A stretch of DNA of 31,415 nucleotides from contig JADHUC010000115.1 of NCBI GenBank assembly GCA_016784735.1, positions 1-31,415 of the forward strand, written 5' to 3'. The notes under the pieces are model-generated. The model was given only the letters and a program-made list of their open reading frames with translations. It was not told the origin of the DNA and did no database searches. The DNA comes from Pirellulaceae bacterium. GTDB taxonomy: Bacteria > Planctomycetota > Planctomycetia > Pirellulales > Pirellulaceae. Below, piece by piece: positions 4,488 to 5,982 of the stretch; the first letter of the stretch is position 1; the number at the start of each line of letters is the position of its first letter. The translations under genes and the position numbers were made by a program.

Positions 4488-5636
4488 ATGAGCGACCTGC
4501 GGGAAGACTGTGGATGCTGCAACCAGGCAACACGGAACGTTGCATTGGCGGCCAATCAGCCCCCGGACAGCAACGGCAGAGGTTCCGCGGACCGCACCGA
4601 ACCATGGATAGTCGGATCAGTGAGTACTCCTGCCGGCGAAGTTCCCCAGGTGAGTACTTCCTTGCGATTGCCGGACCATCTGGGCACGTGCAGGGCGCGT
4701 TGGGGTATGGGCCGCATGAGTTACTCGATCGCACCCGGGCTGTACGCCGTGGGAACGCCAACCGGCGAGTCTCCCGTGCTGGTGACGGCCAACTACAAAA
4801 TGAGTTTCGACCGCCTTCGTTCTCAGTTGGCAGGGATTGATGCCTGGATACTGGTGCTTGACACAAAGGGCGTCAACGTATGGTGCGCCGCCGGCAAAGG
4901 CACGTTTGGAACCGACGAGATCGTCCACCGAGTTGCGGCGACGAATTTATCTGAAGTGGTCTCCCATCGCCGTTTGGTTGTGCCACAACTCGGCGCACCG
5001 GGTGTGGCCGCTCATGAAGTCAAGCAGCGCTGCGGATTTCGCGTTGTGTACGGTCCGGTGCGAGCCGCCGATGTGCCTGCGTTCTTGGAAGCAGGCATGA
5101 AAGCGACGCCCGATATGCGCCGCGTGCGTTTTCCGATTCTTGATCGTCTGGCCGTTGCCCCCGTCGAGCTGATGCTCGCAGGCAAGTCCATGCTCGTGAT
5201 CGCAGTCTGTTTCCTGTTCCTGGCGGGACTGGGGTCGGACGGCTTCGATTGGACAAGGGTCGCGACCGTTGGCCTTGGTTCGGCCGCGTTGTTCCTGGCT
5301 ACCTGCATCGGCAGCATCGTGCTTGCACCGGCATTGCTGCCTTGGCTGCCAGGACGAGCGTTTGCGGCAAAAGGGGCTTGGCTGGGACTGGTTTTTCTAC
5401 TGGGAATGGCCCTTTATGTCGGGAGTCACTTGGAGGCGATTGAAAGCTGGTTTGCCGTCGCTGCGTGGTGTCTGATGATACCAGCCGTGGCAAGCTTCTT
5501 GGCGATGAACTACACCGGCGCGAGCACGTACACATCGCTATCGGGCGTACGCATCGAAGTGCGAGTGGCTGCGCCGATCCAAGCAATTTGTGCGATCCTG
5601 GGTGCAGTTCTCTGGCTGGCGGGACGCTTCGTATAA
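4488..5636 (+). CDS. hgcA: mercury methylation corrinoid protein HgcA
   Basis: The cap-helix signature N(V/I)WCA(A/G)GK is present as LDTKGVNVWCAAGKGTFGT (Cys133 codon 4884-4886). N-terminal region PWIVGSVSTPAGEVPQVSTSL...RARWGMGRMSYSIAPGLYAVG...LVTANYKMSFD is typical of HgcA. The C-terminal ~150 aa form about 5 hydrophobic TM helices. An hgcB-type ferredoxin follows 34 nt downstream. Confidence 0.92.
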   Translation: MSDLREDCGCCNQATRNVALAANQPPDSNGRGSADRTEPWIVGSVSTPAGEVPQVSTSLRLPDHLGTCRARWGMGRMSYSIAPGLYAVGTPTGESPVLVTANYKMSFDRLRSQLAGIDAWILVLDTKGVNVWCAAGKGTFGTDEIVHRVAATNLSEVVSHRRLVVPQLGAPGVAAHEVKQRCGFRVVYGPVRAADVPAFLEAGMKATPDMRRVRFPILDRLAVAPVELMLAGKSMLVIAVCFLFLAGLGSDGFDWTRVATVGLGSAALFLATCIGSIVLAPALLPWLPGRAFAAKGAWLGLVFLLGMALYVGSHLEAIESWFAVAAWCLMIPAVASFLAMNYTGASTYTSLSGVRIEVRVAAPIQAICAILGAVLWLAGRFV

Positions 5637-5670
5637 CACAAAACTGCGCACTAGACACAGAGAAAGATTC

Positions 5671-5982
5671 ATGTTCGGACTGCAGTATCTGCCGGGCGTC
5701 GTCACATTGACGTTGGATGCCGACAAGTGCAATGGATGCGGCCTGTGCGCCATCGTTTGCCCGCACGCTGTGTTTGCCGTCCAGGACGGAAAGTCGCGAA
5801 TTGTCAACCGCGACGCGTGTATGGAATGCGGTGCCTGTGCGCACAACTGTCCATCTGCAGCCGTCACGGTCGAGCCGGGAGTCGGCTGCGCCGCTGCGGT
5901 GATACGCAGCAAGACGGGTGGCGAGGGCTGTTGTTGCATCCAATCTGAAGAGCCCACTTGTTGCAGTCGGTCGGGCGAATGA
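5671..5982 (+). CDS. hgcB: mercury methylation ferredoxin HgcB (2x[4Fe-4S])
   Basis: ATG 5671 (the ORF is open from 5590). MFGLQYLPGVVTLTLDADKCNGCGLCAIVCPHAVF...CMECGACAHNCPSAAV contains two CX2CX2CX3CP motifs. The Cys-rich C-terminal tail (GCCCIQSEEPTCC) corresponds to the conserved HgcB C-terminal Cys pair. Immediately downstream of hgcA. Confidence 0.9.
   Translation: MFGLQYLPGVVTLTLDADKCNGCGLCAIVCPHAVFAVQDGKSRIVNRDACMECGACAHNCPSAAVTVEPGVGCAAAVIRSKTGGEGCCCIQSEEPTCCSRSGE

Follow-up and report, generated by a model that had tools for sequence, protein, structure and literature searches.

We analysed a stretch of 31,415 nucleotides (nt) of DNA (hereafter the window), which appears to be the whole of contig JADHUC010000115.1 from an NCBI metagenome-assembled genome (MAG) labelled Pirellulaceae bacterium, and found at positions 4488-5982 a pair of genes corresponding to hgcA and hgcB of mercury methylation. 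Comparisons of sequence and predicted structure indicate that these are intact HgcAB orthologues, held under purifying selection in an uncultured, marine-type planctomycete of the Pirellulaceae (Planctomycetota), an interpretation to which we assign a probability of about 0.86. The pair is as follows.

4488-5636, plus strand: hgcA, encoding a disordered, Cys-rich N-terminal tail, a corrinoid-binding domain and a five-helix membrane anchor; identical to MBL7040685.1.
5671-5982, plus strand: hgcB, encoding a ferredoxin with two [4Fe-4S] clusters; identical to MBL7040686.1.

What the analysis establishes directly is orthology, the catalytic features at the level of sequence, a predicted fold, purifying selection and gene pairing. 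Both genes start with ATG in the list of open reading frames (ORFs), hgcA specifying 382 amino acids (aa) and hgcB 103 aa, and they lie on the same strand as two separate, unfused frames with a gap of 34 nt; the longest frame covering hgcB begins at a GTG at 5590, and the deposited form (MBL7040686.1) is the 103-aa product of the ATG. To discriminate HgcA from its paralogues, we relied on the cutoffs of curated hidden Markov models and on the structural match to the HgcA model of strain ND132 described below. HgcA scored 457.4 bits with the NCBIfam HgcA equivalog model NF040863 (cutoff 275), and it fell below the cutoffs of both the model for HgcAB-like fusion proteins (NF043039, 213.8 bits, cutoff 285) and the model for the corrinoid iron-sulfur protein (CFeSP; NF003195, 75.2 bits, cutoff 306). 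HgcB scored 109.8 bits with its own equivalog model (NF040864, cutoff 99), residues 5-98 covering profile positions 1-93, and only 51.9 bits with the fusion model. Among 80 species-representative loci, hgcB follows immediately 3' of hgcA in 78, and in the other two the contig ends first; since both proteins exceed their equivalog cutoffs and the gene order is kept to this extent, the pair is no chance pattern. Ratios of nonsynonymous to synonymous substitution, calculated against two sister species, were 0.15-0.16 for hgcA and 0.09-0.19 for hgcB. A first-pass annotation of this DNA, made from the sequence alone, had described a complete, unfused and intact hgcA-hgcB pair, and the separate frames and equivalog scores bear this out; its coordinates and listed sequence features all proved correct when the ORFs were read again, and curated models, the kind of check that it had suggested, gave the result reported here.

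HgcA has the following three elements.

4875-4898, plus strand: cap-helix motif NVWCAAGK (residues 130-137), in which Cys133 is the predicted cobalt-thiolate ligand.
5157-5630, plus strand: transmembrane domain of five helices (residues 224-381), from hydropathy and AlphaFold2.
4509-4520, plus strand: N-terminal CGCC (residues 8-11, with C8, C10 and C11), the Cys form of the HgcA CC/CU motif.

The sequence GVNVWCAAGKGTFGT is found in HgcA, with the cap-helix Cys as residue 133 (codon TGC, 4884-4886), and N130, V131, W132, C133, A135, G136 and K137 are invariant in an alignment of 65 sequences of relatives. The high-stringency HgcA motif has been defined as N[V/I]WC[A/S][A/G/S]GK (PMC10087281), which NVWCAAGK fits. 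Pfam recognised a CdhD domain at residues 81-199 (44.4 bits), and the only sequence matches in the PDB were CFeSP large subunits, over ~120-125 residues at ~25% identity. Hydropathy placed five hydrophobic segments within residues 221-382. An AlphaFold2 model computed with 65 homologues (mean predicted local distance difference test score, pLDDT, 81.7; predicted template modelling score 0.75) comprises a disordered tail (residues 1-35), an alpha/beta Rossmann-like corrinoid domain and then five long helices at residues 224-245, 255-286, 292-313, 321-342 and 351-381. In a Foldseek search this model matched best to 9a0b_A, the deposited model of HgcA from ND132 (46% identity, 329 aligned columns), with CFeSP corrinoid domains next. 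The cap-helix motif with its Cys133, the CFeSP-like corrinoid domain and the approximately five C-terminal transmembrane helices, all of which the first-pass annotation had noticed, are therefore confirmed, the first as invariant among the relatives, the second by the CdhD match together with the CFeSP sequence and fold alignments, and the third by hydropathy and the predicted structure.

The N-terminal CGCC cluster, which had been singled out as an additional trait, is present at residues 8-11; it is no peculiarity, since most of the top 60 HgcA homologues have CC, CCC or CCCC at this position. An N-terminal extension bearing a CU motif (Cys followed by selenocysteine, Sec) has been reported for the majority of HgcA proteins, with packed Cys residues in others (bioRxiv 10.1101/2022.07.06.499078); by its sequence, the CGCC of the window is the Cys version of this known CC/CU extension (Haft & Gwadz 2022). 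Reading the DNA 5' of hgcA with TGA permitted, we found CC in ~34 of the 80 species loci and C-TGA (CU) in ~26, the latter nearly all of Desulfobacterota type, with a few of these automatic calls being doubtful. As a separate observation, three HgcA relatives at ~60% identity (P0087, P0091 and P0108) have an N-terminal thioredoxin-like domain, PF13192, fused before the HgcA core.

HgcB contains the two CX2CX2CX3CP clusters expected from the earlier description, C20/23/26/30 followed by P31 (nt 5728-5763) and C50/53/56/60 followed by P61 (nt 5818-5853), and Pfam matched it to Fer4 families alone. Beyond them are Cys73 in a GVGC motif (5887-5889), CCC at residues 87-89 (5929-5937) and CC at residues 97-98 (5959-5964); residue 73 is reported to be Sec in some members of this family (bioRxiv 10.1101/2022.07.06.499078). 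The tail of CCC plus CC had been presented as a departure from a single CC pair, and while it is indeed present, there is nothing unusual about it: an internal CCC or CxC ~14 residues past GVGC, together with a terminal CC, is common among relatives, and a short extension beyond the terminal CC, five residues here and likewise in L010, is found in other relatives too.

In GenBank the two proteins are named "acetyl-CoA synthase subunit gamma" (HgcA) and "4Fe-4S binding protein" (HgcB). The same HgcA was seen in several samples, on no fewer than 15 contigs in all. Its nearest species representatives are uncultured Pirellulaceae MAGs at 80% identity, and relatives at 58-80% come from Pirellulaceae, Pirellulales and Planctomycetia MAGs; the next relatives, at ~60%, belong to Phycisphaerales and Planctomycetaceae and, here and there, to other phyla, and Desulfobacterota proteins follow at ~48-54%. 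The planctomycete host suspected from the sequence alone is hence supported by both the GenBank record and the nearest Pirellulaceae MAGs. The idea that a planctomycete hgcAB would be new did not survive: a monophyletic Pirellulaceae HgcA clade has been published from an anoxic marine blue hole, Sansha Yongle (PMC12953829), Planctomycetota hgcA has been reported widely (PMC12953829, PMC10469668, PMC7438021), and NCBI already names many of the relatives in MAGs HgcA. The pair is ordinary for the field: anoxic marine metagenomes had already yielded HgcA from the Pirellulaceae, so the list of lineages does not grow. What it does mean is that this Pirellulaceae pair is to be regarded as true HgcAB and its bearer counted as a putative methylator despite the GenBank names, and that it makes a reasonable candidate for heterologous testing of planctomycete mercury methylation.

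The mechanism that we propose is taken from homology to the enzyme of Pseudodesulfovibrio mercurii ND132. Purified ND132 HgcAB consists of a membrane-associated cobalamin protein and a partner with two [4Fe-4S] clusters; its methyl donor is S-adenosylmethionine (SAM), not methyl-tetrahydrofolate, and a methyl-Co(III) species with Co-thiolate ligation forms before Hg(II) is methylated (PMC11588087). The residues that matter there are HgcA C93 and HgcB C73, C94 and C95 (PMC11588087), and their counterparts in the window are HgcA C133 and HgcB C73 and C97/98. By analogy, HgcA would be anchored in the cytoplasmic membrane through its five C-terminal helices, and its cytoplasmic domain would hold cobalamin with the cap-helix Cys133 as the lower axial thiolate ligand. 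HgcB, as a 2x[4Fe-4S] ferredoxin, would reduce the cobalt to Co(I), which would take a methyl group from SAM to give methyl-Co(III), and this group would then be moved to Hg(II) to yield CH3Hg+. In HgcB, Cys73 and the Cys pairs near the C terminus would bind Hg(II) and present it, a task in which the flexible CGCC tail at the N terminus of HgcA probably shares. On the same grounds, cobalamin binding by HgcA, expression of the pair and actual mercury methylation by this organism are predicted. Looking for folate-branch genes in the genome, as had been suggested earlier, is an outdated check, since the purified enzyme takes its methyl group from SAM (PMC11588087).

Several points weigh against reading the pair as a functional methylation system. 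No planctomycete is known to methylate mercury, and the evidence here is computational. The margin of HgcB over its equivalog cutoff is modest (~11 bits), the cap helix is poorly modelled in the apo AlphaFold2 prediction (pLDDT <50 at residues 129-136), and in its N-terminal motif HgcA here has Cys where the majority of Desulfobacterota enzymes have Sec. The earlier statement that no methylating planctomycete isolate had been confirmed agrees with the consensus of 2022, when validated methylating isolates belonged to the Desulfobacterota, Firmicutes and Euryarchaeota and none lay outside these three phyla (PMC10087281).

The gene immediately upstream of hgcA, which GenBank presents as two pieces, is a predicted selenoprotein with the following elements.

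3069-4349, plus strand: predicted selenoprotein of 426 aa, with a signal peptide, a weakly HMA-like domain (Sec53-x-Cys55) and a di-haem peroxidase.
3225-3227, plus strand: in-frame TGA, putatively read as selenocysteine, conserved in nine sequences.
3249-3261, plus strand: candidate selenocysteine insertion sequence (SECIS) hairpin, GUGCG-GUC-CGCAC, 21 nt past the UGA.

Read upstream across the TGA at 3225-3227, the peroxidase ORF (3249-4349) stays in frame as far as position 3069, where an ATG opens the coding sequence of a signal peptide. GenBank divides the gene into MBL7040683.1 (a 52-aa hypothetical protein) and MBL7040684.1 (a 366-aa c-type cytochrome), and public records hold it as split ORFs of 49-53 aa and ~366 aa. 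Using further sequences from L002, L081-L092, L171-L173 and L177-L179, we found the TGA kept in nine distinct orthologues or paralogues at 57-100% protein identity, with the frame conserved on both sides; in all nine the site is TGA, never TAA, TAG or a Cys codon, and it is set in the motif GTS[SPQG]-U-[AL]-C-[IV]-T-E or GTKA-U-C-F-S-E. An exhaustive search of 1.84 billion representative proteins returned seven clusters for the domain after the TGA, all starting at the same VRSAL just past it, and among these seven there was no homologue with Cys at the TGA site. Such an absence of Cys homologues is unusual, yet not disqualifying for a selenoprotein.

The 13-mer GUGCGGUCCGCAC, located 18-21 nt past the UGA, can form a 5-bp hairpin with a GUC loop, similar to the apical portion of the SECIS in E. 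coli fdhF. It is identical in eight of the nine sequences, and in the ninth a C-to-U change keeps a G-U pair; its codons GTG CGG TCC (V-R-S) show no synonymous change, whereas of six further conserved degenerate codons in the vicinity five are variable. On the other side of the balance, the hairpin is not the minimum-free-energy fold in the window, that fold being a different, non-conserved hairpin, there is no covariation, and none of the Rfam SECIS families matched the candidate.

The peroxidase part matched CCP_MauG at 163.7 bits and has CSTCH and CITCH haem motifs. Its N-terminal partner is best described as weakly HMA-like, on the basis of weak profile matches: the selenoprotein scored 19.9-21.3 bits with the HMA family PF00403, below the cutoff of 24.8, four of five orthologues matching with a best E-value of 6.4e-5; the N-terminal domain aligned with MerP by hhalign at E = 8.7e-4 and a probability of 23%; and it also weakly matched the model NF041115 for an HMA-like UxxU selenoprotein. 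A word-indexed homologue search with this domain gave one match from 21 candidates, and a metagenome scan with the full selenoprotein retrieved mostly ordinary di-haem peroxidases, the N-terminal domain being present in L091 and L092 only.

Concerning the machinery for Sec, a gene for SelD (336 bits) adjoins hgcB in a sister lineage (L087 7583-8749, minus strand; L088 6391-7557, minus strand), and this SelD has its own in-frame TGA at the active site (…VEASG-U-AAKLGPGDL…), where gene callers split it into 58 and 313 aa. There are no tRNA genes, including tRNA-Sec, in the window, and selA, selB and selC were not seen. The text of a 2026 review of prokaryotic selenoproteins yielded no entry naming a cytochrome c peroxidase, MauG or HMA selenoprotein. 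Judging from the conservation of the TGA and its surroundings, Sec decoding of the upstream gene is likely, and the gene would then represent a rare, apparently uncatalogued haem peroxidase family with a conserved Sec in a metal-site-like loop, split in public records.

Genes with an FGE-sulfatase domain recur beside copies of the selenoprotein gene, on both sides in L171 and L172 and at 85-897 in L177, in which a cytochrome c' gene separates the two; another (L182 3-257) adjoins hgcA of a relative at 67% identity.

The selenoprotein gene and hgcAB occur together in a block of ~3 kb that starts ~140 nt before the former and closes where hgcB ends. It is the sole DNA common to three lineages at species level, namely the window population, L002 and L087, whose flanks all differ (AP-endonuclease and DctPQM; a beta-helix protein and a PALP-CysS fusion; a sulfatase and SelD). 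Within the block lies a further element.

4354-4438, plus strand: palindrome resembling repetitive extragenic palindromic (REP) elements (arms of 27 nt, loop of 31 nt), in the spacer that separates hgcA from the peroxidase gene.

This palindrome folds at -80.6 kcal/mol (z = -6.1), recurs at 134-219 and has a related copy at 21099-21174; members of the family start with GTAGGTC and end with GACCTAC, with arms of 22-27 nt and a loop of ~31 nt. It is kept in L087 and partly in L002, and it accounts for a sub-threshold Rfam match to mraW (31.8 bits versus 50). A specific regulatory RNA was considered for it and rejected, because the same palindrome stands elsewhere on the contig; it is probably an mRNA hairpin or terminator.

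The linkage raises the possibility that orthologous HgcAB works in a three-gene module with the upstream periplasmic selenoprotein. The latter would trap mercury, or some other soft metal, outside the membrane or oxidise it there, and in this way supply HgcAB or shield it. We consider this doubtful, although several observations speak for it: the ~3-kb block is all that the three lineages share, the Sec sits where HMA domains bind metal, a Sec-type SelD gene stands beside hgcB in one of the lineages, and the HgcA and HgcB families often use Sec at presumed Hg-binding sites (bioRxiv 10.1101/2022.07.06.499078). Against it, the selenoprotein also occurs without hgcAB, as a paralogue in the same population and as orthologues in L092 and L177, the REP-like hairpin separates its gene from hgcA, and the HMA assignment is under the Pfam cutoff. 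Beyond the closest clade, moreover, the linkage of peroxidase and hgcAB is absent, in 78 other species loci, in all other Planctomycetota loci and in the HgcA relatives at 73%, 67% and 65% identity. That an apparently always-Sec periplasmic peroxidase travels with hgcAB as a 3-kb cassette in a clade of marine-type Pirellulaceae because the proteins work together is an improbable suggestion. Speculatively, the selenoprotein might trap Hg(II) on the outer face of the membrane, or convert Hg(0) to Hg(II) there by oxidation, thereby supplying or gating the substrate of methylation; the linkage in three lineages does fit the recently observed connection of selenium with the proteins of mercury methylation.

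In the HgcA relatives at 73% and 67% identity, hgcA is preceded by a small, conserved ORF of ~80 aa (L180 3756-4004, plus strand; L182 ~300-551, plus strand), with the pattern …AYDA..RTATS.GP.VA.E.ACLL…EEYRSFR.YNPW.FG…PPR.ESL, which ends at or overlaps the hgcA start; it has no precomputed Pfam match, and in L182 it forms the continuation of an FGE-sulfatase-like ORF.

Those Pirellulaceae that are in culture live as aerobic heterotrophs, and one may ask whether true hgcAB orthologues might yield no methylmercury in situ, being silent, deprived of cobalamin, inactivated by oxygen or directed to another substrate. This we regard as unlikely. The enzyme is indeed oxygen-sensitive and expressed at very low levels (PMC11588087), and validated methylators are confined to three phyla (PMC10087281); against this stand the strong purifying selection on both hgcA and hgcB, the retention of every residue known to matter, and the fact that all tested isolates with unfused hgcAB methylate mercury (PMC10087281).

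As to the surroundings of the pair, the neighbours named in the first-pass annotation (cytochrome c peroxidase, TRAP transporter and S9 peptidase) are all real: hgcAB is flanked by the gene of the di-haem cytochrome c peroxidase (CCP)/MauG family, dctP, dctQ and dctM of the TRAP transporter, and an S9 peptidase gene. Other genes in the window encode FGE-sulfatase-domain, extracytoplasmic function (ECF) sigma, FecR, WD40, LRR, TPR, GFO/IDH/MocA and DUF6807 proteins, which are typical of planctomycetes. The "aerobic-looking" character ascribed to this context is not established, since the TRAP transporter and S9 peptidase are uninformative about oxygen, no neighbour is diagnostic of an aerobic lifestyle, no oxidase is found among the window genes, and the left 3.2 kb correspond in independent assemblies to another, paralogous locus. 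Bacterial di-haem peroxidases, for their part, are typical of micro-oxic or anoxic periplasms. A scan of the window for sigma-70 promoters and terminators gave nothing exceeding shuffled sequences.

That the left part, with its FGE-domain gene, ECF sigma and FecR, has a separate origin emerged from comparing window positions 1-3607 with loci L171-L176 and L081-L086, which located the following boundary.

3178-3607, no strand: mosaic junction zone, with the switch placed within 3223-3607; the ECF-sigma/FecR locus lies to the left and the hgcAB locus to the right.

Positions 197-3277 match, with one mismatch, contigs that carry ECF sigma-FecR, then a paralogous peroxidase gene and, in the place of hgcA, an FGE-like gene. 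Over positions 3321-11636 the window is identical to other contigs, where the run of peroxidase, hgcAB, DctPQM and S9 comes after genes for AP-endonuclease-2 and PIN. The two copies of the peroxidase gene are 93.9% identical, and ECF-type contigs without a peroxidase gene stop at 3252-3261. In one sample the two loci had similar coverage (8.5x and 9.3x), which suggests two paralogues within one genome. The join in the contig is either an assembly chimera or a recombinant, so the ECF sigma and FecR genes are not to be taken as neighbours of hgcAB; such a mosaic also warns against reading gene neighbourhoods in MAGs at face value.

A mosaic contig, together with the patchy phylogeny of hgcAB and near relatives labelled Nealsonbacteria, Opitutaceae, Nitrospirota and Armatimonadota, could mean that the contig was mis-binned and that hgcAB came from another phylum. 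We judge this very unlikely, given that the closest genomes were assigned to the Pirellulaceae each time in three independent rounds of binning, that the flanking genes are typically planctomycete (WD40, LRR, TPR, FGE-sulfatase, DUF6807, GFO/IDH/MocA and ECF sigma/FecR), that the GC content is even across the window (0.54-0.64), and that the REP-like element beside hgcA recurs elsewhere on the contig. Finally, the GenBank and JGI names and the common CdhD domain would suit a non-methylating paralogue, either of the HgcAB-like fusion type or a corrinoid protein of the acetyl-CoA pathway, a reading refuted by fusion and CFeSP scores far under their cutoffs, by a CFeSP match spanning only ~125 residues and by the presence of the cap-helix Cys, the transmembrane domain and separate genes, which leave it next to no likelihood.

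Three further non-coding features were recorded in the window. The dctP-dctQ spacer (7102-7463, 360 nt) contains nested inverted repeats (7156-7177/7323-7344 and 7204-7225/7276-7297), and as the same spacer measures ~135 nt in contig L085, the window may hold a small insertion resembling a miniature inverted-repeat transposable element. An intergenic inverted repeat at 23731-23960 has 35-nt arms 160 nt apart, and another at 29366-29443, with 32-nt arms 14 nt apart, follows a gene for a 1106-aa protein and may be a terminator.

Set against known systems, the upstream peroxidase resembles MauG, MbnH and bacterial di-haem CCP in having two CXXCH motifs and a PYMHDG region, scoring 214 bits with the MauG model and 205 bits with the MbnH model, both below the equivalog cutoffs; no NCBIfam model reached its cutoff with this protein. 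It also has weak N-terminal similarity to NF041115, the HMA-like UxxU metal-binding selenoprotein. It differs from these families in that the two parts are fused and carry a U-x-C (or UC) motif.

HgcA shares with the CFeSP large subunit (AcsC/CdhE; PDB 2h9a, 4c1n and 4djd) a Rossmann-like corrinoid domain of ~125 residues at 25% identity. CFeSP, unlike HgcA, has no cap-helix Cys and no membrane domain, and it has a TIM-barrel and an N-terminal Fe-S domain; the alignment is limited to the last ~125 residues of CFeSP and does not extend over its full length. With the HgcAB-like fusion proteins (NF043039) the pair has in common the cap helix and the ferredoxin motifs, whereas those fusions, which are non-methylating in tested isolates, are single proteins and here there are two genes with a 34-nt gap. 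The host at family level and the protein family are like those of the blue-hole Pirellulaceae HgcA clade (PMC12953829), a likeness drawn from its description, and in contrast to the MAG proteins of Pirellulales and Planctomycetota that NCBI names HgcA, the record here is still called acetyl-CoA synthase subunit gamma.

The closest comparison is with HgcA and HgcB of ND132 (Pseudodesulfovibrio mercurii = Desulfovibrio desulfuricans; DND132_1056/1057). The differences are these: the N-terminal motif is the all-Cys CGCC here and reportedly PCUGP with Sec in ND132 (bioRxiv 10.1101/2022.07.06.499078), HgcB here has an extra internal CCC and five residues past the final CC, and the host is a planctomycete and not a sulfate reducer. 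In ND132, HgcB Cys73 and the terminal CC are both needed for activity (PMC11588087). The two systems agree in their two-gene layout, in a corrinoid domain with a cap-helix Cys (C93 in ND132, C133 here) followed by five transmembrane helices, in an HgcB with two [4Fe-4S] clusters, Cys73 and a C-terminal Cys pair, and in the HgcA sequence, which is 46% identical to the deposited ND132 model along its whole length.

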